DNA of 64,000 nucleotides from an uncultured Candidatus Saccharibacteria bacterium (GCA_964591715.1 CAZQDR010000004.1:375-64374), one strand, 5' to 3'. Shown: positions 11,600 to 56,027, counted from the stretch's first letter. A program made the numbers and translations. The notes: generated by a model from the letters alone, not told the origin.

Positions 11600-12733
11600 A
11601 TGGCAAAAATAGCCCGAATTTACTTGGATACCGCCGCCGCCACGCCTCTTGATGGGCGGGTTAAGCGCGCCATGCTGTCGTACTTGGGCAGTCACTTTGG
11701 CAACCCTTCTAGTCTCCATGCCGAGGGCGTGGCGGCAGCGCGGGCGGTGCAAACCGCCCGGCAGCGAGCGGCCGCGGTGCTCGGTGTCCAGCCGGATGAA
11801 ATTATTTTTACCAGCGGCGGGACCGAGAGCAATAACTTGGCGCTGACCGCGGCCGCGGGTGGCGAAATAATCATCTCCGCAATCGAGCACGCTTCGGTTG
11901 TGGCGGCCGCCCCCGCTGCGATAGTGGTCCCCGTCGATGCTCGCGGGGTAATTGATTTGAAAAAGTTTAAATCCAGTCTCACGCCGCAAGCAAAGTTGGT
12001 TAGCGTGATTTATGCCAACAATGAGATTGGCACCATTCAACCCCTGGCGGAGATTGCCAAAATAATTCGCGCCCACCGCAAAATCCATCAGACCGCTTTT
12101 CCTTATCTCCACACCGACGCTTGTCAGGCCACGCGCTTCCTTGAACTTTTCGTACCGCGCTTGGGTGTGGACTTGCTAACCTTAAACGCCGCCAAAATTT
12201 ATGGACCAAAAGGGGTGGGACTGCTCTATGTTAAGCGTGGCGTTAAACTGTTGCCCTTGCAGCAAGGCGGCGGTCAAGAGGCCGGTCGACGCGCCGGCAC
12301 CGAGAACGTCGCCGGTATTATTGGTCTTGCCACGGCGCTTGAGTTGGCCGCCGCCTCGCGCCAGACCGAAGCGAAGCGTCTCGATCCTTTGCGAAATTAT
12401 TTTATTACCGAGCTGCAAAAAATTCCGGGTCTAAAAATTAACGGGACTGGACCCAATCAGTTGCCACATTTAGTGAACGTGACGGTTCCAGGCATCTTGG
12501 CTGAACAGATGGTGATCGAACTTGATGCGCGGGGCATTGCTCTATCCACTGGTTCGGCTTGTGCCATCGCCAGTCACGACGAGTCGTATGTTATAATGGC
12601 GCTAGGTCGGAGTAAAAAAGAAGCGGAACAGTCAGTGCGCTTCAGTTTCGATCGTACTACCACAAGGACGGAACTAAAGTACGTGCTAAAGATGATCAAA
12701 GAGGTGATTAAAAAATATCAAACTATAATCTAA
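11600..12733 (+). CDS. Cysteine desulfurase (class V aminotransferase, NifS/IscS family)
   Basis: 'IIFTSGGTESNNLAL', 'HTDACQA', the PLP-lysine region 'NAAKIYGPKGVGLLYV' and the active-site Cys loop 'STGSACA'. Confidence 0.85.
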   Translation: MAKIARIYLDTAAATPLDGRVKRAMLSYLGSHFGNPSSLHAEGVAAARAVQTARQRAAAVLGVQPDEIIFTSGGTESNNLALTAAAGGEIIISAIEHASVVAAAPAAIVVPVDARGVIDLKKFKSSLTPQAKLVSVIYANNEIGTIQPLAEIAKIIRAHRKIHQTAFPYLHTDACQATRFLELFVPRLGVDLLTLNAAKIYGPKGVGLLYVKRGVKLLPLQQGGGQEAGRRAGTENVAGIIGLATALELAAASRQTEAKRLDPLRNYFITELQKIPGLKINGTGPNQLPHLVNVTVPGILAEQMVIELDARGIALSTGSACAIASHDESYVIMALGRSKKEAEQSVRFSFDRTTTRTELKYVLKMIKEVIKKYQTII

Positions 12734-12739
12734 CACCCC

Positions 12740-13348
12740 ATGCACGAACTACCTTCACTGCCCTACAAATATAGTGACTTGGAACCGCACTTTGATGAGG
12801 AGACAATGCGCTTGCATCACACCAAGCATCACCAGACTTATATTGATAAGCTAAACGCCGCGCTCGAGCCTTATCCAGACCTGGCCGCGAAAGACATTTT
12901 CGTTTTGATGAAGGATTTAAGCGCCGTCCCAGAGGGTATCCGTAACGCTGTCCGCAATCATGGTGGGGGTCATTTAAATCATCTGTTGTGGTGGGAGTGG
13001 CTTTCACCAACACCGACCGAGCCAGGTGAGCAAACAATTGGTGCGCTGGATCAGGCATTTGGCAGTGTGGACGGTTTTAAAAAGCAGTTCACCGAGGCGG
13101 CTCTCGCCCGCTTTGGCTCGGGCTGGACCTGGTTGGTGAAGACCGACGGGGGACTAAAGATTGAAAGTACCGCCAATCAAGATACGCCCGTGAGTGAGGG
13201 TAAGGCGGTCATCTTTGGCGTTGATGTTTGGGAGCACGCTTATTATTTAAAATATCAGAACCGGCGCGCTGACTATTTGGCCGCTCTTTGGTCAATAGTT
13301 AACTGGACAAAGTTTGAGCAAGCGCTTACGGCCTCGGTTGCGAAATGA
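12740..13348 (+). CDS. Fe/Mn superoxide dismutase
   Basis: 'LPYKYSDLEPHFDEETMRLHHTKHHQTYIDKLN', 'FGSGWTWL' and 'DVWEHAYYL' are hallmark SOD metal-ligand motifs. Confidence 0.9.
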   Translation: MHELPSLPYKYSDLEPHFDEETMRLHHTKHHQTYIDKLNAALEPYPDLAAKDIFVLMKDLSAVPEGIRNAVRNHGGGHLNHLLWWEWLSPTPTEPGEQTIGALDQAFGSVDGFKKQFTEAALARFGSGWTWLVKTDGGLKIESTANQDTPVSEGKAVIFGVDVWEHAYYLKYQNRRADYLAALWSIVNWTKFEQALTASVAK

Positions 13349-13376
13349 CCAATAATATTGTATTATTTAAAATTAA

Positions 13377-14207
13377 ATGGAAGAACTAAATAAGAACCAA
13401 ATAGTCTTGCTGGTGCTCCTGGTAAGCTTTGTTACCTCGATTGCCACGGGTATTGTGACTGTTACTTTGATGGACCAGGCGCCGCCAGGCTTAACTCAGA
13501 CGGTTAACCGCGTGGTTGAACATACTATTGAGCGCGTGGTGCCGGGCGAAGTGCGCACCACCACTGTTGTTAAGGAGGTACCAGTTTTAATTACCGAGGA
13601 ACAAATTATTTCTGACTTAGTCCAGAGCGCTTCGCCAGCGATTGTGGAGGTGACCTCTGTTGATGGCTCAAAAGTTTTGGGTAGTGCTTTTATTACTTCA
13701 ACCGCTGGCGAAATAGTCACCGCCGCCCACTTGCTTGGCCCCGGCCTCTCTAATGGCCAAAAGTTTGCGATTGTCTTAAGGCAAGGTCAAAAAATGGATG
13801 TGCAATTAATGAAATTCTCACCCGAAAGTGATATAGCTATCTTGCAGGCTGACGGAAGTAAGCTAGCGGAGATTGCCGCAGCGGCCAAGTCCGCTAACGC
13901 CACCTCAACCGCTAAAGCTTGGACGGCGCTTGAGCTCGCTGAAACGGAAAGCTTCCCTGGTCAGACTGTCGTGACTCTCGGATCATCAGTTGAGGGGCCG
14001 ATCAATGTTACCGGCGGTATCGTCTCATCGATTGTAACATCTGCCTCCTCTCCGGATATTGTATCTATTAAGACCAACGCGGTTAATGAGATCAGTTTGG
14101 GTGGACCTGTACTTAACACCAAAGGCAAAGTTATTGGTGTAAGTACCACAAACGGGTCAGCGGTTGCGACGAGGTCAATTAAGGATTTACTAGCCACTAA
14201 TCCCTAA
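13377..14207 (+). CDS. Membrane-anchored trypsin-like (S1/HtrA-like) protease-domain protein, with atypical catalytic-Ser motif
   Basis: N-terminal TM helix. His motif 'IVTAAHLL', Asp motif 'DIAILQAD', and 'EISLGGPV' where GNSGGP is expected, so Ser is displaced by one position. Confidence 0.5.
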   Translation: MEELNKNQIVLLVLLVSFVTSIATGIVTVTLMDQAPPGLTQTVNRVVEHTIERVVPGEVRTTTVVKEVPVLITEEQIISDLVQSASPAIVEVTSVDGSKVLGSAFITSTAGEIVTAAHLLGPGLSNGQKFAIVLRQGQKMDVQLMKFSPESDIAILQADGSKLAEIAAAAKSANATSTAKAWTALELAETESFPGQTVVTLGSSVEGPINVTGGIVSSIVTSASSPDIVSIKTNAVNEISLGGPVLNTKGKVIGVSTTNGSAVATRSIKDLLATNP

Positions 14208-14218
14208 CCAAAAAATTT

Positions 14219-16912
14219 ATGCCTCCGCCATTCTCAAACTTTACTTCCAAGGCCAAAGAAGTGATTCGCAAAACTCATGAGTTGGCTATTGAACGCGGCC
14301 AAAATCAAGTTGGGCCGGTTCACCTTTTGGCGGCGCTGTTGTTGCAGGATGAGAGCGTTTTCGTTTCTATCCTCGACAAAATCGAGATTGATACGATTAT
14401 GCTGACGGATTTTGTGATTGAAAATCTGGATGGTGGCGAGCCAGCGACCGTTGTCTCCGCTTCGTACCAAATTTATTTAACACCCGAGCTGGTGCGGGTT
14501 TTTGATACCTCCGCCAAGATTGCCACTAACATGAGCGATGAGTTTGTTTCGACCGAGCACTTACTTTTGGCGCTTTTAGAAACACCAAATCAGGCGCACG
14601 AGATCTTGCAGCGTTTCCGGGTTAACAAAGATCGGGTTTTGAAGGTGATCCAGGATTTACGCGAGAACAAAGATCGGGAAGTCGAGCAGCCCAAAAAAAT
14701 GAAATCAATCGAAAAATTTACCAAAAACCTAACTGATCTAGCCCGGCAAGACAAACTTGATCCGGTGATTGGCCGCGAGGAGGAAGTTCAGCGCATTATG
14801 GAAATATTGTCTCGCCGCACAAAGAACAATCCGATTTTGATTGGTGAGGCTGGTGTTGGTAAGACGGCGATTGCTGAAGGTCTAGCGATTAAAATTGCCC
14901 GTGGCGATGTACCCGAGTCATTGCGTGACAAAGAGTTGGTGTCTTTGGATCTGGGCCTTTTGGTTGCCGGCACTAAATATCGCGGTGAGTTTGAGGAGCG
15001 CCTGAAGAATGTCTTAAAAGAGATTGAGAAGGCGGACAATAAAATAATTGTCTTTATTGATGAGATCCACACGATTGTGGGCGCGGGCGCGGCCGAAGGG
15101 GCGATTGATGCTTCAAATATGTTAAAGCCGGCCTTGGCCCGCGGGGAGTTGCGAGCGATTGGTGCCACCACGATTAAGGAGTATCAAAAACATATTGAAC
15201 GGGATCAGGCGCTGACACGACGCTTCCAGCCTGTGTACGTGGAGGAGCCAAGTATTGATGATGCGGTGACCATTTTACGTGGCTTAAAGCCAAAGTACGA
15301 GGCTCATCATGGTATTCATATTACTGACGCGGCCATTGTAGCGGCGGTGACGCTCTCGAGCCGCTATATAACCGACCGATTTTTACCAGACAAAGCCATC
15401 GATTTAATTGATGAGGCTTCATCGGCTTTGCGTTTGCAATTGGAGAACAAGCCTCAGTCGCTGGAAACGGCGGATACGGCCATTATGAAACTGGAAGTTG
15501 AGAAAGAAGCCCTGAAGCGTGAGGTAGCTGGTAATGATGATAAGAAGGCCAAAGCCCGAATTAAAATTATTGACCGGGAGGTGGGTGAGTTGCGCGAGGA
15601 AGTCAGTGAGCTCGAGTTAAAGTGGAAAAATGAGAAGCAAGTTATTGGCGAGCTGAAGACTTTGAAGCGCGATCTTGACCAGTTACGACTGGAGGCAGAT
15701 CACGCGGAAATGCGCGCCGATCTCTCTCGGGCTGCCGAAATTCGCTATGGCAAAATTCCCGAAGTGGAGAAACAGTTAAAGGCTCGCGAAGCTCGCCTTA
15801 AGAAGCTCCAAACTTCGCGGCGGATTTTGAAAGAGGAGATTACCGAAGAGGATATCGCCAGTGTCGTGGCGCGCTGGACGCATATCCCAGTGATGAAGAT
15901 GCTGGAGAGCGAGTCAACAAAGTTATCGCAAATCGATGACGCTTTGCGCTCACGGGTGCGTGGTCAGGATGAAGCGATTCAAAAGATTGCCGAGGCCGTA
16001 AAGCGCTCCCGTGCTGGTGTAGGCGATCCCGACCGACCGATTGGCTCCTTCATGCTCTTAGGCCCAACGGGCGTGGGTAAAACGGAACTTGCTAAGGCGC
16101 TCGCTAATTTTATGTTTAATGATGAGAAGTCGCTCGTCCGTATCGATATGAGCGAATACATGGAGAAGTACTCCGTCTCTAAAATGATTGGGTCGCCGCC
16201 GGGTTATGTTGGTTATGAGGAGGGCGGCTCTCTCACCGAGACCGTGCGCCATCGACCATACTCGGTCCTACTCTTTGATGAAATTGAGAAGGCTCATCCG
16301 GAAGTCTTCAACATTCTCTTGCAGGTACTCGACAACGGTCGCTTAACAGACTCGAAGGGTCGGACCGTCAACTTCAAAAATACGATTATCTTGCTGACCT
16401 CCAACCTAGGTAGCGAGTTCATGACGCGCTTGCAGCGGATCGGCTTCTCGGCGCTGGGTAACACTGGCGACTTTGAGGACGTGAAGACGCGGATTATGGA
16501 AACGCTGAAAGGGCACTTCCGTCCGGAATTCTTGAATCGCTTGGATGATGTGATTATCTTTAATCCGCTTAAGCCAGAAGTGATTCGGGAGATTGTGGAT
16601 CTGCAATTAAATGTGGTGCGCGAGCGGCTCAAGAATAAAAATCTCGAACTGGAGGTGTCATTGGCTGTCGTGGAATACTTGGCCAAGGAGGGCTTTAGTG
16701 CTGAGTATGGCGTCCGCCCGCTCAAACGTTTGATTCAAAATAAAATTCTTAATTTGGTGGCGGAGTTTATTATTGCCCGAAAGGTGGAAAATGGTGGCGT
16801 CTTGGCTGTTGAGCTCAAGAATGGCTTACCCTCGATCGAGATTCGCCGGACCTTTAGAGGGTCAAAGCGCTCCATCCATCGTCCAGCTCCAGTGGGTTCA
16901 CCAGTCAAGTAA
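14219..16912 (+). CDS. clpB: ATP-dependent chaperone ClpB
   Basis: Clp N-domain repeats, NBD1 '[18 protein letters not shown]', long middle coiled-coil, NBD2 '[19 protein letters not shown]' and '[14 protein letters not shown]'. 897 aa. Confidence 0.95.
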
Positions 16913-27310: not shown

Positions 27311-27502
27311 TTAAATACGCCAAACCAACTGCTGAGGTTCGAAGAAGCAAAGTTCACCAGTTGAGCGGCGGGCATTGACGGTGGCGCCTCGATCTTGCCG
27401 TTCCTCTTTCAGCTTGGAATATCGGGTGGAGTTTTTTGCTTCCCCCGACCTAAAGCCTTCACCTGGATCTAAGTGCTTAAAATAGACCCTGACTTTTTTC
27501 AT
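27311..27502 (-). CDS. Hypothetical small protein (63 aa from the second Met)
   Basis: RBS GGAGGAG precedes the internal Met (MKKVRVYF..). The track ORF starts 11 codons earlier. Confidence 0.35.
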   Translation of the reverse strand: MKKVRVYFKHLDPGEGFRSGEAKNSTRYSKLKEERQDRGATVNARRSTGELCFFEPQQLVWRI

Positions 27503-27809
27503 TGTTTTCTCCTCCAGCTTTGGGCCAGTTATCACACTTCGGAAGTAGCCAGTTTACATGTTCAGTAATTATGTGATACCAAAACCATTGGCCACAATGT
27601 GGACAGTGGATGGTAACGGCACCGATCTTGTTGCTGGTGTATAGGGGTTGCTTATTTGCGGGCAGGTCACGATTGGCGGTGTAGCCTACGCAGTAGCGGG
27701 CGTGTTCGGGTTCATTTCGGCCACACCGGCATTGCCAGTCTGAGGCGTAATAAGCCCCCTTAATACCTTGTCCCCAAGACACCAGTCTCGCGGCTTCTTC
27801 GTCGGTCAT
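27477..27809 (-). CDS. Hypothetical Cys/His-rich (zinc-binding-like) protein, 110 aa
   Basis: RBS AAGGAGGG before the ATG. Motifs 'CRCGRNEPEHARYC' and 'HCPHCG'. Confidence 0.45.
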   Translation of the reverse strand: MTDEEAARLVSWGQGIKGAYYASDWQCRCGRNEPEHARYCVGYTANRDLPANKQPLYTSNKIGAVTIHCPHCGQWFWYHIITEHVNWLLPKCDNWPKAGGENNEKSQGLF

Positions 27810-28760: not shown

Positions 28761-30029
28761 ATGTTAGACATCAAATTTATCCGGGAGAATCCGGATTTGA
28801 TTACGGAGGCCGCTCGCAAAAAGCACCTCACTTTCTCGGTGCAGGATTTGCTAATTTTAGATGAGAAGCGCCTCAAACTCTTAAACGAAGTGGAGCGAAT
28901 GCGCGCCGAGCAAAATACGGTGAGTGAGGAAATGCCCGCCGCCGATAATCATCGTCGCGGCATTTTAATTGAGAGTATGCGCACACTCAAAGCCGCGCTC
29001 CAGGATCGCGAGGCGGAATTAAACGGCGTGCTTAAAGATTGGCAAAAGTTAATGGTTCAGGTGCCAAACGTGCCGGATGTTTCTGTGCCGGAGGGAGCCA
29101 GTGATGCCGAGAATTTAGAAGTGCGCACTTGGGGCGAACCCACCCTGTTCGATTTTACCCCCAAAAACCATGTGGAATTAATGCAGGCGCTCGACCTAGC
29201 GGACTTTGAGCGGGGTACCAAGGTCGCTGGCTTTCGCGGTTATATATTAAAGAATGACGGCGCGGCACTACAGTTTGCTTTGTGGCAATTTACGATCCAG
29301 CATTTCTTGAAGCAGGGTTATCAACTGCTCTCGGTGCCGTCGCTCGTTAAGCGTGAAGCTTTTTTGGGTACTGGTTATTTGCCGCAAGGTGAGGAGGATT
29401 TGTATAAAACCCAGGATGGTGATTATTTGGCCGGCACTGCTGAAGTGGCCACCATGGCCTATCACATGGGTGAGACTTTTGCCGAAGCTGATCTACCAAA
29501 AAAATATTTGGCTTTCTCCCCCTGCTTCCGTCGCGAGGCGGGCAGTCACGGCAAGGATACTAAGGGCTTAATCCGCGTCCACGAGTTTTTCAAATTAGAG
29601 CAGGTCGTTTTGTGCCCAGCCGATCACGAACTGTCGGTTAAATATCACGAGGAGATGACGCGCTTGTCGGAGGAATTATTACAAGCACTTAAATTGCCCT
29701 ATCACGTCGTGGCCAATTGCGGCGGCGATCTGGGTTTGGGTCAGGTTAAAAAGTATGATCTCGAGGCCTGGGTACCATCCGAGAATGCTTATCGCGAGAC
29801 TCACTCGGCTTCCTACTTCCACGACTTCCAGACTCGCCGTTTAAATATTCGTTACAAAGATAGCGAAGGCAAATTGCGCTTTGCGCACTCGCTTAACAAC
29901 ACCGCGCTGGCTACCCCGCGCGTCATTGTTCCCCTAATTGAGAATTATCAACAGGCCGATGGCAGCATTCTTGTTCCGGAAGTCCTCCAACCATATCTGG
30001 GAAAAGAAAAAATTACCCATGCGGCATGA
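28761..30029 (+). CDS. serS: Seryl-tRNA synthetase
   Basis: N-terminal coiled-coil arm and class II motifs 'FRREAGS' and 'GLIRVHEF'. 422 aa, ending with TGA. Confidence 0.95.
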   Translation: MLDIKFIRENPDLITEAARKKHLTFSVQDLLILDEKRLKLLNEVERMRAEQNTVSEEMPAADNHRRGILIESMRTLKAALQDREAELNGVLKDWQKLMVQVPNVPDVSVPEGASDAENLEVRTWGEPTLFDFTPKNHVELMQALDLADFERGTKVAGFRGYILKNDGAALQFALWQFTIQHFLKQGYQLLSVPSLVKREAFLGTGYLPQGEEDLYKTQDGDYLAGTAEVATMAYHMGETFAEADLPKKYLAFSPCFRREAGSHGKDTKGLIRVHEFFKLEQVVLCPADHELSVKYHEEMTRLSEELLQALKLPYHVVANCGGDLGLGQVKKYDLEAWVPSENAYRETHSASYFHDFQTRRLNIRYKDSEGKLRFAHSLNNTALATPRVIVPLIENYQQADGSILVPEVLQPYLGKEKITHAA

Positions 30030-30876
30030 TGATCTGCTCCGCAACTCTCGTCAGCTAAAACAGCGTCGGATCTTCCGGCAATGGCTCTGGTTTGCTAGTA
30101 GTCTCACGGCCTTTTTGGTCATTGTTATCATTATGGCCAACACTAGCCGCTTCGCGATAGGTGAGATCAAGATTAGTGGTGCGCAAACAATTAGAGAGCA
30201 AGATATTGAGACGACGATTAACAGCGTGCTGGATGGACGTTACGGCGGGATATTTCCTCGACGCAATGTTTGGCTCTTCCCGAAGGCGGATGTAGTGGCG
30301 GCGCTAAGAGCCCAGTATCCTAATCTAGCGGCGGTGTCAGTAGCACTGTCAGATAAAACGACGTTAGTGGCCAAGGTGGCCGAGCGAGCTGGCACTGTCC
30401 GCTGGTGTCGCGATGAGACCGAAGTGACCTGCTATTTTGCTGACCAAAATGGATACATCTTTTCCGAATCACCAGAGTTTAGCCGGGGAATATTTTTAAG
30501 TATTGTAAGTGATTTACCAACTGACCCCATTGATCTGGCGCCACTTGAGACCGCCGACTTTAAAATACTGGTCTCATTGCGAGAGGCGATGGCTCGGGCT
30601 TTGTCGTCGAGTAGTCAGTCGCCGGTAAACATCTTTCAAATTCAGCATGAGGAGGGGCGAGACTACGCGCTCATTGCCGAGAGTTCTTCGCCCGAGCGGC
30701 GTTATCGTGTGCGCATTTCGCTTGATCAAGACCTTGATCAAGCAGCCAATAATGCCGCCGCGGCTTTGGCGGCTCCGGCGCTTCAGTCAGAACTAGCAAA
30801 AAAGGAGACCAAGCTCGATTATCTGGATCTTCGATTTGCGCCAAAGATTTTCTATAAATTCCAGCCCGGTATATAA
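30019..30876 (+). CDS. FtsQ/DivIB-like cell-division protein (POTRA domain); start taken at the Met overlapping the serS stop
   Basis: Basic cytoplasmic tail, TM helix 'LTAFLVIVIIMA', then POTRA-like 'IGEIKISGAQTIREQDIETTIN...RNVWLFPKADVVAALRAQYPNLAAVSV'. Confidence 0.55.
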   Translation: MRHDDLLRNSRQLKQRRIFRQWLWFASSLTAFLVIVIIMANTSRFAIGEIKISGAQTIREQDIETTINSVLDGRYGGIFPRRNVWLFPKADVVAALRAQYPNLAAVSVALSDKTTLVAKVAERAGTVRWCRDETEVTCYFADQNGYIFSESPEFSRGIFLSIVSDLPTDPIDLAPLETADFKILVSLREAMARALSSSSQSPVNIFQIQHEEGRDYALIAESSSPERRYRVRISLDQDLDQAANNAAAALAAPALQSELAKKETKLDYLDLRFAPKIFYKFQPGI

Positions 30877-30883
30877 TAAATGA

Positions 30884-31273
30884 ATGCAGTTTGGAACTTT
30901 GCCGTTTCAATATCTCGGTTGGCACTATACGCTCGCCCTTAAAGATTATGCCGTTAATGCCGGCAATATTCTCCGCTTTATTTATCACTTCTTTTCTCTG
31001 CCGACATTAATCAAGACGTTTTTTGCGCCGTGGCGTCGACTGGGCGAGCAGTATCGCAAGGTCTTTGATCCCGGTGCCTGGTTTGAGACCTTTATTTTAA
31101 ACGCGCTGATGCGGTTGCTCGGAATGTTTTTTCGTCTCTGGTTAATTTTAACCGGTCTGGCGGTACTGGCGGTGGCTAGCGTCGCCGCAGTTGTTATCTT
31201 TATATTTTGGTTGATCTTGCCGCTGGCGGTCGCGATCATCTTTCTCGGCGGACTTAACTTGCTCTGGTCATGA
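30884..31273 (+). CDS. Hypothetical membrane protein (129 aa)
   Basis: Two or three hydrophobic helices. No recognisable family. Confidence 0.4.
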   Translation: MQFGTLPFQYLGWHYTLALKDYAVNAGNILRFIYHFFSLPTLIKTFFAPWRRLGEQYRKVFDPGAWFETFILNALMRLLGMFFRLWLILTGLAVLAVASVAAVVIFIFWLILPLAVAIIFLGGLNLLWS

Positions 31274-33675
31274 ACGCCTATGCTAAAATTATTCGCTCCA
31301 GTCGACTCTACCCGGTATTAATTTTGGAGGAGTTAATCTCCAGCGCTGCCCGAAACATCTTGTTGAAAGTAGGCACGCTCGCCATTTTGTTGGTCCTCGG
31401 TGTCTCGTTGCCCAACGGGATTGCTCCGCAAGTTTCTGGATTGTTGCTAATGTTAATTGCGATTCTTTTGATCTTGGCGGCGATCGAGCTTTTCTTCCGC
31501 TCTTATTATTACGAAAGTATTATTACTAATGAGTACACCGATCAGGATATTTTTACTTTTACGGTGGGCCGGATCCTAAGGAATATTCATCACGACAAAA
31601 TCTTAAAGGCCTATCTATACTCACCAACCGGTCGGCAGGTCACGCGACGTCTGGGTCTAGATCGAAATGCCGTTGACGCTTTTTTGGCCAGTCATGCCGC
31701 CTTACCGACCGAGCCGCTCCACTTTGCGGCGGGAGAGGTTTTGACTCTGCGCCAGCTCACTACCTGGTTACTGACAGCTTACCCGGCGTGGCAAGAGTGG
31801 CTACTCACCTTTGACTTGCAGACCGATGACGTTTTGGCCGTCGTTGATTGGGTGGTCAGGGATATTGAGACGGCGGCGCGACGGCGCCGCTGGTGGTCGG
31901 CCGAGCGCCTAGAGCGCGTAGCGCCGATTGCTCAAGACTGGTCCTACGGTGAGACCTTTGGCCTAATGCGTTACAGTAAGGATTTAACCGCTACCGCTAC
32001 GCCAGAAGCGCCCCAGGCGACCATCAGCCAGGAGGTCCAGGCGCTCGAAACCGTTTTAGCTCGTGTTCATGAGGCCAATGCTCTCTTGGTGGGGGCGACG
32101 GCCGAGAATCTTGATTCGGTCTTATGGCGGTTTGCTCGGACGCTTAAAGCTGGTGCCACTTTACCAGCCTTACAAAACAAGCGCTTAATTGTCTTGCACG
32201 TAGCGGACTTTTTAGCCGCCTCCAGTGACCGACAAAATTTAGAACAAGGTCTCAGTAAGTTGCTGGCCGAAGCCGCCGCCGCTGGTAACGTTATTTTGGC
32301 GATTGATAATTTTCCTAACTTACTCCAGGCGGGAGAGGCACTCCAAGCTGACGTGGTCGCCTTACTCGAACCTTATTTAAATAGCGGGACCTTGCAACTG
32401 GTAGCGCTCTCGGAGACCGAAGTCTTTCATCGCGCGCTTGAACCACGAGCCGGTTTGATGACCCGCTTCGAGAAGATCGACGTTAACGAGGGCAATGATG
32501 AGCGGATTATTACCGAGCTAGAAGACTTGGCCGAAGAATTGGAGCGCACTAATCCGGTTGTCATTACTTATCCCGCCCTCCGGATGATTTACACCAATGC
32601 CGAGCAATACTTTCAAACGGATTCTTTAACTGATAAGGCAACTGACTTGTTGATTGAGGCGGTACCATGGGCGCTCGGTCATGGTAAAAGTGTGATTGAT
32701 CGGTCAGTCGTCGAGGCGCTCACCAAAGACAAGACCAGTATTCCGGTCGGTGCCATTGACGCTGGCGAAAAGCAGAAGTTGCTTGGGTTGGAGGCGGCCC
32801 TGCATGCTCGGGTCATTGGCCAAGCGACAGCACTCAAGGCCGTGGCCAATGCCATGCGTCGTGGTCGTACCGGTATCCGTAATCCAAAGCGACCCATGGG
32901 CTCGTTCCTGTTTTTGGGTCCAACTGGTGTTGGTAAGACTGAAACAGCGAAGGCGCTCGCCGCCGTCTTCTTTGGCCGTGAGGATGCGCTCTTGCGTCTG
33001 GATATGTCAGAGTATCAGTCGAGCGATGCTTTGGCTCGATTAATCGGCTCGTTTGGGAGTGGTCAGCCTGGTGTGTTGGCAAATCTCTTGCGTCAAAATC
33101 CTTACGGGGTGCTGTTGCTGGATGAATTTGAAAAGACCAATCGCGAAGTACTGAATTTGTTTTTGCAGATTTTAGATGAGGGTTTCTTTTCAGATATGAA
33201 TGGTAAGCGGGTTAATGCCCGTAATATTATTTTTATTGCCACCTCCAATGCGGGCGCCGAGCTCCTGTGGCAGATGGTCAAGTCGGGCCGTGACCCCGTC
33301 GCGGCCAAGGATGAATTAGTGAACAATTTGGTCAGCCAAGGGATTTATAAGCCGGAACTTTTGAACCGCTTCGACGATGTGATTATCTTCCACCCCTTGT
33401 CCGAGACGGATTTGCTCCAGGTGGCTCGACTGCAATTGGAACGTCTAGCCACGCGCCTCAAAAAACAAGGTATAATGGTCAGCGTTACCGATGAGCTGGT
33501 GGCGACCGTGGTGGCGCAAGGCAGTAACGCGGTATTTGGGGCTCGGCCGATGCAGCGCTTTATTCAAGACGAAGTCGAACAGCGCCTGGCCGAGGCGATG
33601 ATTAAAGGTGAGGTGGGCAGTGGTAGTTATGTTAGCTTCGACGGCGACCTTACGCTGCACGCCAGCAAAAAATAA
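31270..33675 (+). CDS. Membrane-anchored Hsp100/Clp-family AAA+ protein with degenerate NBD1 and intact NBD2
   Basis: N-terminal TM helices. The NBD1-like region aligns to ClpB but Walker A is replaced by 'LLVGATAENLDS' and Walker B by 'ILAIDNF'. NBD2 is intact: '[19 protein letters not shown]', 'VLLLDEFEKTNREV', 'IFIATSN' and 'GARPMQRFI'. Confidence 0.7.
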   Translation: MNAYAKIIRSSRLYPVLILEELISSAARNILLKVGTLAILLVLGVSLPNGIAPQVSGLLLMLIAILLILAAIELFFRSYYYESIITNEYTDQDIFTFTVGRILRNIHHDKILKAYLYSPTGRQVTRRLGLDRNAVDAFLASHAALPTEPLHFAAGEVLTLRQLTTWLLTAYPAWQEWLLTFDLQTDDVLAVVDWVVRDIETAARRRRWWSAERLERVAPIAQDWSYGETFGLMRYSKDLTATATPEAPQATISQEVQALETVLARVHEANALLVGATAENLDSVLWRFARTLKAGATLPALQNKRLIVLHVADFLAASSDRQNLEQGLSKLLAEAAAAGNVILAIDNFPNLLQAGEALQADVVALLEPYLNSGTLQLVALSETEVFHRALEPRAGLMTRFEKIDVNEGNDERIITELEDLAEELERTNPVVITYPALRMIYTNAEQYFQTDSLTDKATDLLIEAVPWALGHGKSVIDRSVVEALTKDKTSIPVGAIDAGEKQKLLGLEAALHARVIGQATALKAVANAMRRGRTGIRNPKRPMGSFLFLGPTGVGKTETAKALAAVFFGREDALLRLDMSEYQSSDALARLIGSFGSGQPGVLANLLRQNPYGVLLLDEFEKTNREVLNLFLQILDEGFFSDMNGKRVNARNIIFIATSNAGAELLWQMVKSGRDPVAAKDELVNNLVSQGIYKPELLNRFDDVIIFHPLSETDLLQVARLQLERLATRLKKQGIMVSVTDELVATVVAQGSNAVFGARPMQRFIQDEVEQRLAEAMIKGEVGSGSYVSFDGDLTLHASKK

Positions 33676-33678
33676 TTT

Positions 33679-34749
33679 ATGCCAAGCAAGTGGTCCTATC
33701 TATGGTCTGTCAGTCTCGCCCTGCTTACGGGTGGTGTTATGGCGTTTGGCTTTTCGTTTGCGACTAATCAGGTGGGAGAGCAATTAGCGCTGGATTTTAT
33801 GGCACGACAGCAGCTTGCCTCACCCGCCATGATTCAAGTTGTGGAGGCGCCAGCCGAGTTGCCGGTGGTTGTGGCCGCGGCCACCGAGCCAGTGTCGCCC
33901 ACCCTCACGCTAACTTTTGTAGGCGACATTATGTTGGATCGTGGGGTGCTTTATAGCGCCAAGAAGAACGGCCAGGGTAATTTTGATTGGTTATTTGAAG
34001 ATATTCCCGAACTGGCCCAAGCTGACATTTTGTACGGCAATTTGGAGGGACCACTCTCGGATCAAGGTCGCGATCTCGGCAATCTCTACTCCTTTCGGAT
34101 GGATCCAGCGGCACTACCGGCTCTTGAGGCGGCCAGCTTTGATGTTTTGCAAATTGCTAATAATCACATCGGCGACTGGGGTCGCGAGGCGATGGTGGAT
34201 ACCATCAGTCGCTTAAGTCAGGCGGGGATTGTCTCGGTTGGTGGTGGAGAAAATAAGGCCGAGGTCTCAGCGGTTAAGATTGTAGAACGACAGGGAATTA
34301 AAATTGGTTTTCTGGCGGCCACTGACGTTGGTCCTAATTGGTTAGCGGCTAGCGACTTGCCTGGCATCCAGCTCGCGTCTGATCCCGCTTGGCCGGAGAT
34401 AATTAGTGAAGCGTCAAAGCAGGTAGATATTTTGGTTGTTGGTTATCATTTTGGTAATGAGTATCAACCTGATCCCAGTGCCCGTCAACGAGAGTTGTCT
34501 CGTTTAGCTATCGATCATGGCGCCAAACTGGTGATCGGATCACATCCACATGTTGTTGAGCCGATTGAAGAGTATGGAGGTGGGGTGATTGCCTACAGTC
34601 TGGGTAATTTTATATTTGATCAAGCCTTCTCGCCCGAAACGATGTCTGGCCTGGCTTTAACGGTGACCTTTGAGGGTCGAGAGCTCCGCTCGGTAGTGAA
34701 GCGGCAAGTTCTCATTGATAAGCAATTTCGGCCGCGTTTAGTTCCCTAA
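33679..34749 (+). CDS. CapA/PgsA-family metallophosphatase-like protein (poly-gamma-glutamate capsule synthesis family)
   Basis: N-terminal TM helix. Motifs 'LTFVGDIMLDRGV', 'NLEGPLSD', 'ANNHIGDWG' and 'GYHFGNEY'. Confidence 0.65.
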   Translation: MPSKWSYLWSVSLALLTGGVMAFGFSFATNQVGEQLALDFMARQQLASPAMIQVVEAPAELPVVVAAATEPVSPTLTLTFVGDIMLDRGVLYSAKKNGQGNFDWLFEDIPELAQADILYGNLEGPLSDQGRDLGNLYSFRMDPAALPALEAASFDVLQIANNHIGDWGREAMVDTISRLSQAGIVSVGGGENKAEVSAVKIVERQGIKIGFLAATDVGPNWLAASDLPGIQLASDPAWPEIISEASKQVDILVVGYHFGNEYQPDPSARQRELSRLAIDHGAKLVIGSHPHVVEPIEEYGGGVIAYSLGNFIFDQAFSPETMSGLALTVTFEGRELRSVVKRQVLIDKQFRPRLVP

Positions 34750-34750
34750 T

Positions 34751-35944
34751 ATGAAGCGCTCGGCCTATCCCTTGATCCTCGTGGCGGCGTTCGCCATTTT
34801 ATTATTTATGGCCAGTGGCGTACCGGGAAGTTCGCCTAGTGAGTTATTGAGTTTGGTCTTTCCTGAGACAATTACCCCCGAGGCTTTAAAGAGCGCGTAT
34901 GCGGGGCGACGACTGCGCGTATTACTTGTCCCTGGACATGACCACGAATATGGCGGTACGGCTTATGGCAAGATAACTGAAGAGCAGTTGAATGTTGAGA
35001 TGGCTCGGGCGCTTTATGACGTTTTAAAGACAGATCCTCACTACGAGGTTACTACTACCCGTGATTTAACCACAAGGGAATATATTCCCGAACTCCAGCG
35101 TTACTTGATCGATAATCGCGAAAAAATAATTAAACGCACTAGTGAACTTAAAACCGCTTTTTACGATTTTGTTGATCGGGGCGAGCTGACTTTGCAAGAG
35201 GGGATGAATCATAAAGTGGCAGCGACCGAAGTCGCGATCCGACTCTATGGCATTAATGCCTGGGCGAATGAGCAGAAGATTGATTTGGCGTTACATATCC
35301 ACTTCAACGATTATGGTGGACGACGGAGAGGGGTAGTCGGACCATATAATGGCTTTGCCATTTATGTACCAGAGGGTCAGTATGCCAATGCTCGAGCTAG
35401 TAAAGAGTTGGGGCTTGCCATTTCGAACGCCTTGCAACAACGCTTGCCGCTAAGCGATTTCCCTCAAGAGAGTTCGCCGGTGACCGAAGACCAAAGTTTA
35501 ATTGCAATTGGCGCTTATGGTTCCCGTGAGGGTGGAGCAATGCTTTTGGAGTATGGTTATATTTACGAATCACAGTGGCAGAGTAAAGCGGTACGTGATT
35601 TGATGCTACCGGAGTTGGCATTAAAGACGGCGGAGGGGATGAAGCGCTATTTTGAACCAACAGCTGGAGCCTTGGCCTCTAAAATCTTGCCCGCGACCAT
35701 TAGCGCTGATTTGAAAAAGTCAGTCACGCCGCTACCAGATGTCCTGCGACTTCAAACTGCCCTGCAACGTGAGGGTTTGTATCCACCCGCGGGAGAGACC
35801 TTGGCCAGCTGTCCACTCTCGGCCGTGTTTGGTCCTTGCACAGCCTTGGCCGTGACAGCCTTCCAGAAAAAATATAGTATCCCTAGTACCGGCCAGGTAG
35901 ATTCAGCGACGCGAGCTCAGTTGAACTCCCTAGTCAGCAGCTAA
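34751..35944 (+). CDS. N-acetylmuramoyl-L-alanine amidase (Amidase_3-like) with C-terminal peptidoglycan-binding domain
   Basis: Signal/TM helix. Amidase_3-like metal site 'VLLVPGHDHEYGG...EEQLNVEMA' and 'HIHFNDYGG'. C-terminal PG-binding fold 'LQTALQREGLY...AVTAFQKKYSIPSTGQVDSATRAQL'. Confidence 0.6.
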   Translation: MKRSAYPLILVAAFAILLFMASGVPGSSPSELLSLVFPETITPEALKSAYAGRRLRVLLVPGHDHEYGGTAYGKITEEQLNVEMARALYDVLKTDPHYEVTTTRDLTTREYIPELQRYLIDNREKIIKRTSELKTAFYDFVDRGELTLQEGMNHKVAATEVAIRLYGINAWANEQKIDLALHIHFNDYGGRRRGVVGPYNGFAIYVPEGQYANARASKELGLAISNALQQRLPLSDFPQESSPVTEDQSLIAIGAYGSREGGAMLLEYGYIYESQWQSKAVRDLMLPELALKTAEGMKRYFEPTAGALASKILPATISADLKKSVTPLPDVLRLQTALQREGLYPPAGETLASCPLSAVFGPCTALAVTAFQKKYSIPSTGQVDSATRAQLNSLVSS

Positions 35945-36984: not shown

Positions 36985-37331
36985 GGAACAGTGGAGTTGT
37001 CTTGGGTCCAGGAACACCACCTGGCGCCCACTTGCCAGCTAGTAGGCTGGAGAAAGGTAAGGATCCCATGATCCGTAACCGTAGCCCTGATCAGAGTTCC
37101 TTTCAGAACAGTATTCTCAATTGCCAATGCAGCATGATCGTCGCGGCCAGCGCCAGCTGATCGTCGGCGGCCCGGCGGCCCTGGAGACGTCACACCAGGT
37201 GACTATCACCGGAGAGGTCTCCAGGGCCCGGGTCCAGGATTGGGAAAGAAGCCAGGACGGGAAAAGCATCGGGGAAAGAAGAAGCAGGACTTTTGTCCGA
37301 TGGGGCACACGCAGCGTGTGCCCTTTTTTTA
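36985..37331 (+). ncRNA. Candidate structured non-coding RNA (~350 nt, GC-rich) ending in a strong terminator immediately upstream of dnaX; SRP RNA (ffs) is suspected from synteny only
   Basis: Promoter at 36950 and terminator GGGCACAC/GTGTGCCC+T7 at 37302-37331. ~58 % GC against a ~49 % backbone. Only short, implausible ORFs, with no RBS and running through the terminator. The motif GGGAAAGAAGCCAGGAC / GGGGAAAGAAGAAGCAGGAC loosely resembles the SRP helix-8 'GGAAGGAAGCAGCC' motif. The ffs-dnaX adjacency is common in bacteria. Confidence 0.35.
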
Positions 37332-38636: not shown

Positions 38637-39575
38637 TTATTGACTATAGACGAGCGTGGCGCGGATTTGATCGAACAATTTAAGCAGGGCTGGCTGATCA
38701 AATTTGGTAATCGTCCCAGCAGGGTAGTTCTCAAAGACGCTGTAGTGGACCAAGTAGCGAACGGCTAAGCAGGGATTAGTGTCGGGGAAAGCGTAAACGG
38801 TCTCCTCATAGCGATTACCAGCGCCGGCATTGCTGGAGCTGGCGACCGAATAATTTTGACCGGCTAGGGTTTCGATCACCGTTGGATGATTACCATCTAA
38901 AAATAGACTGGCGGAACAGCTGGCCGAAGCGGGCAGGGACTCAAGACTTAAGTAACTGTCGGCGCTCAAGTTAGTGCCGGTGGCCATGGTCTCGGGAATG
39001 GTGAATTTAACGCCAGCGATTTTGAGCGTGGGTGACGCTTGGTAGATATAGGACTCATCCACTTTAAAACTGTCGGGGTAACCCGCCGAACTTGAGGCGA
39101 CTAAGCTTGGGAAGCGAAGAGTGACACCGAGCGAACTGTTAGCGTAAATTTGAGAGAGATTGTCACTGGCGGCATTAGGTGAGACGGCGACGCAGCCAAT
39201 GTAACTCTTCTCGGTATTATTCTCCAGGACCAAGGCGCCATTACCCTTGCTCCAAAAGACGAAGGCCTCATCGGTAGTGGCGTAACGGGCGCCATCGGCG
39301 GAAATGGTTTGGGCCAGGGTGAGATTACGGCCGTCACTTAGGTTAAGCTCAACGTGACCACCGGAAACTGGGGGTTGGTCGCCAACGGCCAGAGTTGAGG
39401 ATCCCGCAAAATAGCTGGCGGTTAAAGTTTTACCAGCGTCACAAGCGTATTGGACGGTGATTAGGGGTTTGTCATTGGTTGCTACTGGTTCTGTAAAAAG
39501 GGGACGATAAGGACTAAACCAACCAATTAGCAGCACGACGACCACCAGCCCTAAAAGCAAGATAAATTTTTTCAT
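38637..39575 (-). CDS. Hypothetical secreted/membrane-anchored Ser/Thr/Asn-rich protein (312 aa)
   Basis: N-terminal hydrophobic helix 'MKKFILLLGLVVVVLLIGW', a low-complexity extracytoplasmic domain and many N-x-S/T sites. A hairpin follows the stop. Confidence 0.5.
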   Translation of the reverse strand: MKKFILLLGLVVVVLLIGWFSPYRPLFTEPVATNDKPLITVQYACDAGKTLTASYFAGSSTLAVGDQPPVSGGHVELNLSDGRNLTLAQTISADGARYATTDEAFVFWSKGNGALVLENNTEKSYIGCVAVSPNAASDNLSQIYANSSLGVTLRFPSLVASSSAGYPDSFKVDESYIYQASPTLKIAGVKFTIPETMATGTNLSADSYLSLESLPASASCSASLFLDGNHPTVIETLAGQNYSVASSSNAGAGNRYEETVYAFPDTNPCLAVRYLVHYSVFENYPAGTITKFDQPALLKLFDQIRATLVYSQ

Positions 39576-41415: not shown

Positions 41416-41604
41416 ACTGGAGTAAACCTATCGATAATTTGTTTGGCTTGTGACGTTGTCACGGGCTTTTTTCTTGTCCAAAATTCCCCTGAGCAGCCTA
41501 TAGAAGTTTAAATAAGTCAGTCTTGACGAACTGATTCATAAGTACTAGTTTTTGAGTAGTACTTAGTGTCAATGTTTAGTCCTTTAACTGTTAAGGGGGC
41601 CAAA

Positions 41605-42252
41605 ATGCTAGTAATTTCCCGATGCTTGAACGCGGGCATCAGAATCGGGGAAGACACCGAAGTTAAGGTGCTGCGACTGGGAACTCGCCGGGTGACGCTT
41701 GGGGTGGAGTGTCCCCCTGGGATACCAGTTTTCCGCAGCGAAGTAGCGCCGGAAATGTCGTCACCAGAGTCGCAAGCCCCGCCGCTAGACATCCGGGTTT
41801 TGATTGTTGAGGACATCCCCGTGCACGGACTTTTGATCGAGCGAAGCTTGTGCAAAAAGGGAGTCAGCCAGATTGAGAAGGTGACAAGCGCTGAAGATGC
41901 GATCAGGCTTCTGGAATCAATTCAGCAGAAGGAGCTGACACGGCCCGATTTGGTTTTGCTTGACCTTGGTTTACCGGGCGTGTCCGGCCTTGAGGTGCTC
42001 AAGAAGATCAGATCAGCGTTCGGTTGGGAAATCGCGGTGGTGGTTCTGACCTGCAGTAACCTCGCCGAGGATTACCGCCAGGCTATGGCGGCGGGTGCCA
42101 ACGCTTTCGTCTCCAAGGGCGAGAGTTACGAAGCTTTTAGACAGCAGCTTTTGTCGATCATCAACTTTTGGGGTAAGGTGGCCTATCGCTTTCGGTATGG
42201 CTTGGGCTCGGCGCGCGCCGAGCCTTTTTTGATCAGTGCGGAGCGCTGGTAA
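41605..42252 (+). CDS. CsrA-like RNA-binding domain fused to a response-regulator receiver (REC) domain
   Basis: RBS AAGGGGG before ATG 41605. The N-terminus 'MLVISRCLNAGIRIGEDTEVKVLRLGTRRVTLGVECPPGIPVFRSEV' aligns with CsrA 'MLILTRRVGE..IGDD..V.VL...G.QVRIGI.APK.V.V.REEI'. The C-terminus is a REC domain with the phospho-acceptor region 'LVLLDLGLPGVSG', T/S 'VVVLTCS' and K 'AFVSKG'. Confidence 0.6.
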   Translation: MLVISRCLNAGIRIGEDTEVKVLRLGTRRVTLGVECPPGIPVFRSEVAPEMSSPESQAPPLDIRVLIVEDIPVHGLLIERSLCKKGVSQIEKVTSAEDAIRLLESIQQKELTRPDLVLLDLGLPGVSGLEVLKKIRSAFGWEIAVVVLTCSNLAEDYRQAMAAGANAFVSKGESYEAFRQQLLSIINFWGKVAYRFRYGLGSARAEPFLISAERW

Positions 42253-55346: not shown

Positions 55347-56026
55347 AATTTTTTATCTTGAATAATTTCGCCGTCACGCAAATAAATAATTCGGCGGGCA
55401 TGCTGGGCAACGTCGAGCTCGTGAGTAATTAACACAATGGTTCGGCCAAGTTCCTCGTTAAGTTTTTTGAAAGTGTCCAAAACAATTTCGCCCGTTTTAG
55501 TATCGAGGTTGCCGGTTGGCTCATCCGCTAGGATTAGCGAAGGATTGTTAACTAAAGCGCGGGCGATAGCCACGCGCTGAATTTGACCACCCGAGAGCTG
55601 GTTGGAGCGATGGTAAAAGTGAGCCTCATCCAAGCCGGCGGCGGTCAGAGCCGCCTTGGCCCGCTTAACTCGCTCTACGTCGCTAACGCCCGCATAAACG
55701 AGCGGTAACATGGCGTTCCTTAGCACTGTGGTGCGGGGCAAGAGGTTGAAGGACTGAAAGACGAAACCAATTTTATCGCGGCGAATGTCGGCCAGTTCAT
55801 CGTCGCTTAAAGTCGAAACATCTTTGCCGTCTAAAAGATACGTTCCCGCGGTTGGCGTATCAAGAGCGCCTAAAATATGCATTAGCGTTGATTTGCCCGA
55901 GCCCGACGGTCCCATGATCGCCACAAACTCGCCGTCATCAATCGTAAAGCTCGCACCCTTGAGCGCCTGGAAGGGTAAGGTCCCGATGGAGTCGTAGGTT
56001 TTGCTGATATTGGTTACTTGGATCAT
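55343..56026 (-). CDS. ABC transporter ATP-binding protein (MacB/LolD-type)
   Basis: Walker A 'GPSGSGKSTLMHILG', signature 'LSGGQIQRVAIARAL', Walker B 'LILADEPTGNLD'. Start taken at the internal Met (MIQVTN) to avoid a 50-nt overlap with the adaptor gene. Confidence 0.9.
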   Translation of the reverse strand: MIQVTNISKTYDSIGTLPFQALKGASFTIDDGEFVAIMGPSGSGKSTLMHILGALDTPTAGTYLLDGKDVSTLSDDELADIRRDKIGFVFQSFNLLPRTTVLRNAMLPLVYAGVSDVERVKRAKAALTAAGLDEAHFYHRSNQLSGGQIQRVAIARALVNNPSLILADEPTGNLDTKTGEIVLDTFKKLNEELGRTIVLITHELDVAQHARRIIYLRDGEIIQDKKL

Positions 56027-56027
56027 T

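Follow-up and report, generated by a model that had tools for sequence, protein, structure and literature searches.

In a 64,000-nucleotide stretch of DNA from an uncultured Candidatus Saccharibacteria bacterium (the window, in which positions are counted from its first letter), an uninterrupted open reading frame (ORF) with an ATG start encodes an 801-aa, membrane-anchored paralog of the Hsp100/Clp ATPases, here called mClp (31270-33675, + strand). Immediately before it lies a gene for a small membrane protein of 129 aa (30884-31273, + strand), whose TGA stop codon overlaps the ATG of mClp (ATGA). Its fold and its second ATPase module (D2) place mClp in the Clp/Hsp100 superfamily, and the mClp gene is obligately paired with that of the small protein, its partner. 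The two appear to represent a large, conserved and apparently undescribed Hsp100 sub-architecture, and the pair is widespread in the ultrasmall bacteria of the candidate phyla radiation (CPR). Hsp100/Clp ATPases are protein machines that have been studied in great depth, and their defining mechanics comprise two active rings, tyrosines in the pore loops and, for the output, either an M-domain or a ClpP loop. The mClp family keeps the Hsp100 scaffold, yet alters its anchoring, catalysis, pore loops and output interfaces and gains an obligate small partner. On balance, and with moderate confidence, we propose that mClp and its partner may form a two-component, D2-driven motor for remodelling or extraction at the membrane face, which would be independent of ClpP and DnaK.

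The relationship to Hsp100 proteins rests on sequence and on fold. By phmmer against PDB sequences, residues 230-465 of mClp align with residues 159-398 of Escherichia coli ClpB, i.e., its D1 (64.7 bits, E 5e-17), and residues 474-789 with ClpB 530-845, i.e., its D2 (262 bits). The first of these alignments, together with Foldseek matches that run full-length, establishes that the D1 of mClp is homologous to that of Hsp100s. ClpB 398-530, the M-domain, is skipped and has no counterpart in mClp; in a curated alignment a gap of ~125 columns likewise parts the mClp family from a ClpB sequence (P0024), and the AlphaFold2 (AF2) model contains no long coiled coil. A preliminary description of the locus, made from the sequence alone, had reported the loss of the middle coiled-coil correctly. 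It had also aligned the protein along its whole length with ClpB and ClpC, which is correct for residues 228-789 but not for the first ~229, where no alignment to any Clp was found. The NCBIfam model of ClpA, which has no M-domain, covers residues 228-789 in one stretch. The NCBIfam models of ClpB, ClpA, ClpG, ClpV and ClpK all match mClp far under their own cutoffs, and the score against the ClpB model TIGR03346 is 390.6 bits, short of the cutoff of 1232.1. Pfam detects solely AAA_2 (PF07724; residues 541-703, E 2.7e-40) and ClpB_D2-small (PF10431; residues 710-788, E 2.2e-20), and no peptidase domain; alignment to profile hidden Markov models (HMMs), a check that the preliminary description had proposed, thus recovers these two domains and not Clp_N. 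The AF2 model, computed with 18 homologs, has a mean predicted local distance difference test score (pLDDT) of 83.7, and Foldseek matches it to chains of ClpC, ClpC1 and ClpB hexamers with E 1e-39 to 1e-46 and TMt 0.74-0.79, the top matches being ClpC and ClpC1 chains.

A canonical ClpB of 897 aa is encoded elsewhere in the window, as had been noted before (14219-16912, + strand). Its residues 8-869 match positions 1-848 of the 853 in TIGR03346, and despite this full-length match its score of 1162.8 bits falls slightly below the cutoff. mClp is therefore an additional paralog. The earlier wording, "an extra, specialised unfoldase", holds for an extra, specialised paralog beside ClpB, but unfoldase is an assumption; both pore-loop tyrosines are gone. 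The ClpP docking loop, [LIV]-G-[FL] after sensor-1, is absent from mClp, in line with the earlier reading: QMVKSGRDP stands where two ClpC/E-like reference sequences of the curated alignment, P0027 and P0028, have VGF and IGF, respectively (columns ~945-955). Genes for ClpP, FtsH and DnaK were not found within the 64-kb window.

The first module (D1; residues 255-470, 32032-32679, + strand) retains the AAA+ fold, as judged from the ClpB D1 alignment, with its catalytic residues gone. At the position of LIGEPGVGKT in ClpB, mClp has LLVGATAENLDS, which includes the Walker A remnant GATAENLDS (32092-32118, + strand). The Walker B motif, ILFIDELH in ClpB, is ILAIDNF (32293-32313, + strand), so that its glutamate is lost (IDN), and the pore loop KYRGEFE has become SDRQNLE, i.e., KYRG is replaced by SDRQ. 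The alignment with ClpB thereby bears out the replaced Walker A and degenerate Walker B of the preliminary description, and mClp lacks the Walker A (GxxGxGKT) and Walker B (hhhhDE) that a working D1 of a class I Hsp100 would have. The loss extends through the family, for which statistics were taken from an alignment of 165 members. The P-loop GxxGxGK[ST] is kept in only two of them; in 37, GxxGxGK is followed by M, L or R, and 102 are without any trace of it. Glutamate occupies the Walker B position in ~10 members, no member has both the P-loop and a DE Walker B, and tyrosine is found at the D1 pore-loop position in none. The structural residues L263, N270, E325, G339, N340, F400 and E425 are nevertheless conserved at ≥92%. 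Mean pairwise identity is 0.32 for D1, compared with 0.57 for D2 and 0.23 for the N-domain. Judging from these alignments, the D1 fold is under constraint, though the module is predicted to be catalytically dead.

D2 (residues 500-706, 32767-33387, + strand; Pfam AAA_2 E 2.7e-40) is by contrast predicted to be an active AAA+ module. It possesses the Walker A GPTGVGKT (32917-32940, + strand), the Walker B LLLDEFEK (33112-33135, + strand), the sensor-1 TSN and the arginine finger NRFD (R700), and it is followed by the small domain ClpB_D2-small with the sensor-2 GARP (33388-33639, + strand; PF10431 E 2.2e-20 over residues 710-788). R759 is invariant in the curated alignments, and the D2 catalytic residues are invariant in two smaller curated alignments that include distant relatives as well as canonical Clp references. 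The retention of Walker A, Walker B, sensor-1 and the arginine finger in this module, claimed earlier for the single sequence, is thus confirmed across these alignments, and the complete D2 catalytic set with AAA_2 and ClpB_D2-small is that of a class I Hsp100. What differs is the pore loop, on which the preliminary description was silent. The D2 loop of mClp, GSFGSGQPG (33046-33072, + strand), is 4 residues shorter than the canonical one; across the family it is 4-6 residues shorter in 162 of 165 members and shorter still in the other 3, which probably reflects alignment gaps. None of the 165 has GYVG in this loop, an aromatic residue occurs somewhere in it in 102 of 165, and a phenylalanine is retained in most members. 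All 165 are without either of the canonical pore-loop tyrosines, so that the aromatic pore loops typical of class I Hsp100s (KYRG in D1 and GYVG in D2) are missing. Few family-specific D2 signature residues were found, in a comparison with a canonical set that consisted mostly of ClpV.

The layout of the N-terminal 250 residues was taken from AF2 models of the whole protein and of the N-terminus by itself. They begin with a conserved, predicted cytoplasmic motif, SRLYPVLxLE, with two short helices (residues 3-22; AF2 and motif conservation in curated alignments), which is followed by a predicted transmembrane (TM) hairpin (residues 25-84, with helices 25-46 and 53-84; 31342-31521, + strand; AF2 and Kyte-Doolittle hydropathy). 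By Kyte-Doolittle, the hydrophobic segments span residues 25-81, and N-terminal hydrophobic segments occur in 162 of the 165 family members. The hairpin loop (residues 47-52) is short and neutral; the outside loop, SLPNGIAPQ in mClp, is short and variable in the curated alignment and without a conserved external domain. Positive charges lie beside both cytoplasmic sides of the hairpin, and the predicted topology is therefore N-in/C-in. Behind the hairpin, at the position of Clp_N, AF2 predicts a helical domain of ~115 aa with two similar helix sets (residues 95-206, 31552-31887, + strand; pLDDT 88-97). The earlier statement that mClp has TM helices instead of the Clp N-domain is therefore correct about the helices and not about "instead".

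Whether domain 95-206 derives from Clp_N was approached in several ways. PF02861 (Clp_N) gave no match at E ≤ 10 in the N-terminal regions of 23 members, hhalign of the domain with a Clp_N alignment returned a probability of 1.6-2.8%, and the two repeats resemble each other weakly (E 0.003, probability 10%). Foldseek with the N-terminal model found nothing significant; of the few domain-sized weak matches (E 4-9), three are N-domains of Hsp104 or PfHsp101. The most informative relative is P0343, which is 37% identical to mClp over residues 236-782 (E 3e-98) and likewise without the M-domain and GYVG. It has two N-terminal TM segments, then at the equivalent position a Clp_N repeat that PF02861 recognizes (25.3 bits, cutoff 20.7), and the family profile aligns with P0343 with both repeats in register, if weakly (E 0.016). 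We conclude that the TM hairpin was added ahead of the N-domain and is not its substitute. Domain 95-206 itself is probably a strongly diverged, as yet unproven, Clp_N.

Between this domain and D1 lies a Trp-rich linker, RRWWSxExLxR...DWSYGxTxxLxxYSxDL (residues 207-240, 31888-31989, + strand), to which canonical Hsp100s have nothing equivalent. Within the N-terminal half it is conserved best, with a mean pairwise identity of 0.43 against 0.23 for the flanking N-domain, and W209, L214, G227 and L232 are conserved in 98, 97, 97 and 94% of the 165 members, respectively. Its AF2 confidence is low (pLDDT<50 over residues 208-226). High conservation combined with low AF2 confidence is typical of an interaction motif, and we regard the linker as a candidate interaction or membrane-interface motif.

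The partner has an N-terminal WxY motif, then FSLxxLxxTFFAPWRR and a C-terminal hydrophobic hairpin of two helices, the hydrophobic segment comprising residues 70-129. It matches nothing in Pfam, NCBIfam, PADLOC or PHROGs. Its family comprises 709 clusters at E ≤ 1e-3, all of ~120-135 aa, and the named homologs are annotated as "hypothetical protein" and come from Paceibacterota, Nomurabacteria, Campbellbacteria and similar groups. A partner homolog lies directly upstream of the Clp-like gene at all 20 testable sites. It was so in six of the first six loci examined, including two from distant relatives (27-31% identity) whose surrounding genes are unrelated, and when four diverse partners were taken as the starting point, the next gene always encoded a Clp-like protein of ~800-840 aa, 2-31 nt away. 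As a negative control, a genome scan with the full-length family profile yielded 80 loci, mostly canonical Clp genes brought in by generic AAA patterns. Among these 80, the partner HMM matched only in six (L001-L004, L007 and L023), which are Patescibacteria, Parcubacteria or Saccharibacteria records, and in all six a TM-type Clp gene follows the partner directly on its strand. No partner was found at any of 73 clp loci without a TM-type N-terminus. In an all-against-all comparison of the neighbours at 16 sites, the partner and the Clp-like gene are the only genes common to all. The pair is documented in five or more genomic contexts, and each examined locus has a single copy of it, with unchanged orientation and equally tight spacing. 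A divergent version of the partner, FPxWWY ... LFVPMYG ... GR..S..R followed by a TM hairpin, also overlaps the Clp start with its stop codon; it is found in three loci from metagenome-assembled genomes with an unconfirmed Gammaproteobacteria label (L006, L019 and L060) and in the locus that encodes P0343 (L090). The Clp-like gene of L010 lies at a contig edge and was left out of the pairing count. The pairing is thus obligate, and the conserved context of mClp is the 129-aa membrane protein, not ftsQ. The best explanation of these features is that the partner is a small subunit of ~125 aa, cytoplasmic in its N-terminal part and held in the membrane by a C-terminal hairpin, and that its translation is coupled to that of the large subunit.

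The extent of the family was assessed with a profile of 18 full-length homologs, which was searched against 1.84 billion representatives. Among the matches listed, at least 150 representatives at 50% identity, almost all of ~780-860 aa, align over nearly the whole profile with scores of at least 760 bits. The possibility, raised with the preliminary description, that mClp is a frameshift fusion is ruled out, and so is that of a pseudogene, as the ORF is intact and these representatives share its architecture. In public annotation, members go by the names "ClpA", "ClpC" or "hypothetical". In one exceptional case, a Candidatus Vogelbacteria metagenome-assembled genome (P0072/P0073, clustered with P0006), the ortholog appears as two proteins, a 539-aa "hypothetical" and a 237-aa "Clp protease ATP-binding subunit", which is probably due to an assembly frameshift and shows how annotation hides the family. 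The family is not limited to CPR-labelled records. A sister branch of TM-anchored, GYVG-less Hsp100s comes from four loci labelled Gammaproteobacteria (L006, L010, L019 and L060; the label is unconfirmed), and the proteins of L010 and L019 keep an intact D1 P-loop, GPPGVGKS and GPEGAGKT, respectively. The L010 protein also begins (~190-290 of the L010 locus) with CPQCHGSGKK...CDNCQGMG, two DnaJ-type CxxCxGxG zinc-finger motifs before the TM segments, which hints at a possible contact of this N-terminus with client proteins. Full-text searches found neither a membrane-anchored Hsp100 nor the pair described in the literature, including the main text of recent genetics and perspective papers on Patescibacteria, and Clp or AAA proteins are not mentioned in the main text of the Southlakia transposon-sequencing (Tn-seq) paper.

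The large subunit of this two-gene membrane AAA+ module (30884-33675, + strand) derives from class I Hsp100s and consists, in order, of a predicted TM hairpin, a diverged helical N-domain, the Trp-rich linker, a predicted dead D1 and, with no M-domain between them, a predicted active D2 that has no loop for ClpP. Based on these results, mClp would form a hexameric ring, since the trans-acting arginine finger of D2 is invariant and the fold matches the protomers of Hsp100 hexamers. In Hsp100s, substrate enters on the N/D1 side and moves on to D2. With an N-terminal anchor, this polarity would therefore make the entry face abut the membrane from the cytoplasm, as in FtsH and Msp1, an argument that draws on the established topology of Hsp100 and FtsH proteins. 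The clients would be membrane-embedded or membrane-associated proteins. The partner would be a co-anchor, an adaptor or itself a client, and of the two rings D2 would act as the sole motor, with D1 as a passive collar. The output would be neither DnaK-coupled disaggregation nor proteolysis, because the missing M-domain argues for independence from DnaK and the missing IGF/L loop for independence from ClpP. Given that both pore loops have lost their tyrosine and that the D2 loop is short as well as variable, mClp would be expected to remodel or dislocate one dedicated client over a short range, and not to unfold many substrates processively. The packing of the pair into an operon with envelope genes in the lineage of the window was counted in favour of this proposal.

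Several points weigh against it. The canonical pore-loop aromatics are lost in both rings, which argues against any threading, and an aromatic residue is retained anywhere in the D2 loop in only 102 of the 165 members. The TM topology comes from hydropathy and AF2 only, we infer both the hexamer and the contact with the partner, and the client of mClp is purely hypothetical. The N-domain and the partner match nothing with a known function, and the envelope and division genes next to the pair are lineage-specific and have little bearing on its ancestral function.

mClp was compared with several known machines. ClpB/Hsp104 is the best match in sequence and fold (Foldseek TMt ~0.76) and shares AAA_2, ClpB_D2-small and the complete D2 catalytic set with mClp, and neither has a ClpP loop, but mClp is membrane-anchored and has no M-domain (hence no coupling to DnaK), no recognisable Clp_N, no live D1 and no pore tyrosines. 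Like ClpA, ClpC and ClpE, mClp has its two modules contiguous without a long coiled coil, and its top Foldseek matches are ClpC/ClpC1, but it differs from them in lacking the ClpP loop and GYVG, in its dead D1 and TM anchor and in scoring far below the family cutoffs. FtsH, Msp1/ATAD1 and Yme1 also have an N-terminal TM anchor that holds the entry face at the membrane, in FtsH likewise a two-TM hairpin. They are nonetheless single rings of the classical clade without a pseudo-D1, and all of them retain a pore loop with an aromatic residue; in addition, FtsH and Yme1 have a protease domain, whereas none is detected in mClp by Pfam, and neither the C-terminal M41 domain nor the classical-clade AAA module of FtsH is present in mClp. 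A non-hydrolysing scaffold ring next to a working one is also known from type II AAA+ proteins (NSF D2, Pex1/Pex6 D1 and p97 D1). These belong to unrelated clades, and in NSF and p97 the inactive ring still binds nucleotide, whereas 102 of the 165 mClp family members have no trace of a P-loop in D1. Skd3, the human CLPB, has only a D2-type module, without M-domain or ClpP, and is matched by mClp with E ~1e-35; in Skd3, however, ankyrin repeats replace D1, the pore-loop tyrosine is kept and the protein is soluble in the mitochondrial intermembrane space.

The chief rival to a membrane-face motor is a switch that threads nothing. Torsins are Hsp100-D2-like, membrane-associated ATPases that have no pore-loop aromatics and depend on a TM cofactor (PMC5425593), and with their cofactors LAP1 and LULL1 they resemble mClp in having an Hsp100-D2-type module at a membrane and a TM partner, which is a functional analogy (PMC5425593). 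By this account the D2 ring would assemble, disassemble or gate a complex of TM hairpins with the partner, and nothing would pass through the pore. The absence of both pore-loop tyrosines from all 165 members, the short and variable D2 loop and the obligate small TM partner all fit, although the likeness of the partner to a TM cofactor comes from the gene pairing. A Torsin, on the other hand, is a single module in the lumen of the endoplasmic reticulum (ER) without an arginine finger of its own, whereas mClp has two modules, is predicted to be cytoplasmic and has an invariant R700. The invariant arginine finger implies that the activity of mClp needs no arginine supplied by a cofactor; sensor-1 and sensor-2 are also invariant, most members keep a phenylalanine in the D2 loop, and the double-ring scaffold with its conserved D1 collar is retained, as a pore-based machine would need. 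We consider a Torsin-like switch unlikely, yet worth serious attention. A role in cell division or peptidoglycan metabolism, in which mClp would remodel the divisome through an FtsQ-like protein or control CapA, an amidase or an L,D-transpeptidase, seems to us rather improbable. It is suggested by the operon in the window (FtsQ-like gene, partner, mClp, PGA_cap gene and amidase gene), by an FtsQ-like gene that stays adjacent in the locus L089 though moved downstream and by peptidoglycan enzymes after the Clp-like gene in L082 and in the P0008 contig. However, the FtsQ-like gene adjoins the pair at only 6 of 16 paired sites, all in one sublineage (serS...dus), where co-linearity can be mere inheritance, and other lineages place the pair beside rplJ/TPR, DUF8128/DUF87 ATPase, P-type ATPase or RecO genes.

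Export of proteins through a pore of TM hairpins, comparable to HSP101-EXP2 in the PTEX of Plasmodium, would also agree with an Hsp100-type ring on membrane helices; up to 24 TM helices could be present in a 6:6 complex if the partner is stoichiometric. CPR epibionts must deliver proteins outward, and a DUF87/TrwB-like ATPase gene follows the Clp-like gene in L084 and L086. But the N-terminal anchor sets the D1 entry face at the membrane, so that translocation would have to run in reverse, from D2 to D1; the pore-loop tyrosines are missing, and the outside loop is short, variable and without a conserved external domain. We regard export as very unlikely. An anti-phage defence pair of an ATPase and a small TM effector is less credible again. 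Such a layout is common in defence, and the D2 region matches the PADLOC models DolB and PDC-M37B with E 1e-33 to 1e-26, but all that is matched is the generic AAA_2 domain (residues 484-664), nothing in PADLOC or PHROGs matches the partner and the pair sits, one copy per locus, in conserved housekeeping synteny (topA, dprA, serS, dus and dnaX). The assignment to DolB of the Dodola system was rejected in particular, as only residues 493-661 match positions 119-278 of its 375, i.e., the generic AAA_2 core. We give the least credence to mClp being an artefact, a decaying clp gene or a soluble ClpB/ClpC with a hydrophobic leader. The loss of the D1 catalytic motifs and the split Vogelbacteria ortholog (539 aa and 237 aa) could be read that way, but the ORF is intact, at least 150 full-length representatives exist at 50% identity, the D1 fold residues and D2 motifs are conserved, the AF2 model is confident and 162 of 165 members have TM segments; we therefore reject this reading as refuted by conservation across the family.

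A bolder reading can be stated as a tentative possibility: mClp and its partner may be an undescribed core machine of Patescibacteria, perhaps with relatives in other groups, and mClp the first integral-membrane Hsp100, a ring with a dead D1 collar and a D2 motor without tyrosine pore loops. With its small TM subunit it would be a membrane-protein dislocase or a Torsin-like remodeller that is maybe essential for envelope biogenesis or division. If mClp is indeed a dislocase or remodeller, it would constitute a new system of membrane proteostasis beside FtsH and a bacterial counterpart to the puzzle of how Torsin-type ATPases act without pore-loop aromatics, and it would give a function to two widespread CPR genes that are now "hypothetical" or mis-annotated as ClpA or ClpC. 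Homologs are found in Saccharibacteria records, and cultivated Saccharibacteria are genetically tractable, so that the proposal can be tested if those strains carry the pair.

The genes around the pair in the window had earlier been taken to point to a role in the cell envelope or in division. The gene upstream of the partner encodes a single-pass membrane protein that resembles FtsQ/DivIB (30016-30876, + strand). Its TTG start, listed at 29938, entails a 92-nt overlap with serS, and homologs align only from residue 33; the start is probably the Met codon at 30016. The TM segment lies at residues 48-77 of the long ORF. The matches to FtsQ, although weak, are consistent with an FtsQ/DivIB-like protein: the NCBIfam FtsQ model gives E 3e-4, and a profile search against PDB FtsQ gives E 4e-4 over positions 92-274, while among six homologs POTRA_1 is detected in four (best E 3e-4) and FtsQ_DivIB_C in two (E 0.015), all below the Pfam cutoffs. 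The upstream gene, described earlier as ftsQ-like, is a neighbour of one lineage: the 6 of 16 sites at which it adjoins the pair all belong to one syntenic sublineage with the order topA, dprA, serS, [FtsQ-like], partner, mClp, ..., dus, dnaX, to which the serS, dprA and dus neighbours are likewise restricted. That an FtsQ-like gene is still next to the pair in L089 after rearrangement, where it lies downstream, hints at a real link within the sublineage.

Downstream of mClp, the window encodes a CapA/PGA_cap protein (33679-34749, + strand; Pfam E 9e-70) and a protein with Amidase_3 and PG_binding_1 domains by Pfam (34751-35944, + strand), followed by dus; both had been correctly recognised before. 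The operon junctions after mClp measure 0-3 nt, and the first strong terminator is at 37302-37324. Neither gene is among the neighbours common to the paired loci. Genes containing PGA_cap also follow the Clp-like gene in L082 and in the P0008 contig, and outside some loci of the FtsQ-like sublineage no peptidoglycan-enzyme genes were seen, whereas the neighbours in other lineages are those listed above. The step from this context to an envelope or division role is consequently not upheld: the neighbours are specific to a sublineage, and the gene that is universal (20 of 20 sites) is the partner, which had been mentioned only in passing. In L084 (5525-7957) and L086 (5472-7879), the pair is followed by a gene for a DUF8128/DUF87/TrwB-like ATPase of ~810 aa (HerA/VirD4-type), and in this CPR branch a gene for a 331-450-aa protein without a detected domain precedes the pair; the arrangement may represent a larger membrane system.

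Other features of the window include an apparent stress operon that ends with the canonical ClpB gene (11600-16912, + strand) and also encodes a NifS-like cysteine desulfurase, a Mn/Fe superoxide dismutase and a short HtrA-like serine protease (276 aa) in which no PDZ domain was detected. Between dprA and topA lies a 110-aa Cys-rich ORF with several CxxC pairs (27477-27809, - strand). A 228-aa protein (41566-42252, + strand) joins a CsrA domain (residues 14-63) to a response-regulator receiver (REC) domain (residues 78-193), an unusual CsrA-REC fusion. A MacB-type permease (MacB_PCD and FtsX), an ABC ATPase and a 549-aa HlyD-like membrane-fusion protein are encoded together (54135-57677, - strand), which is the layout of a tripartite pump in a presumably single-membrane CPR cell. 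Finally, a 312-aa protein (38637-39575, - strand) contains an MliC domain, that of a membrane-bound lysozyme inhibitor.

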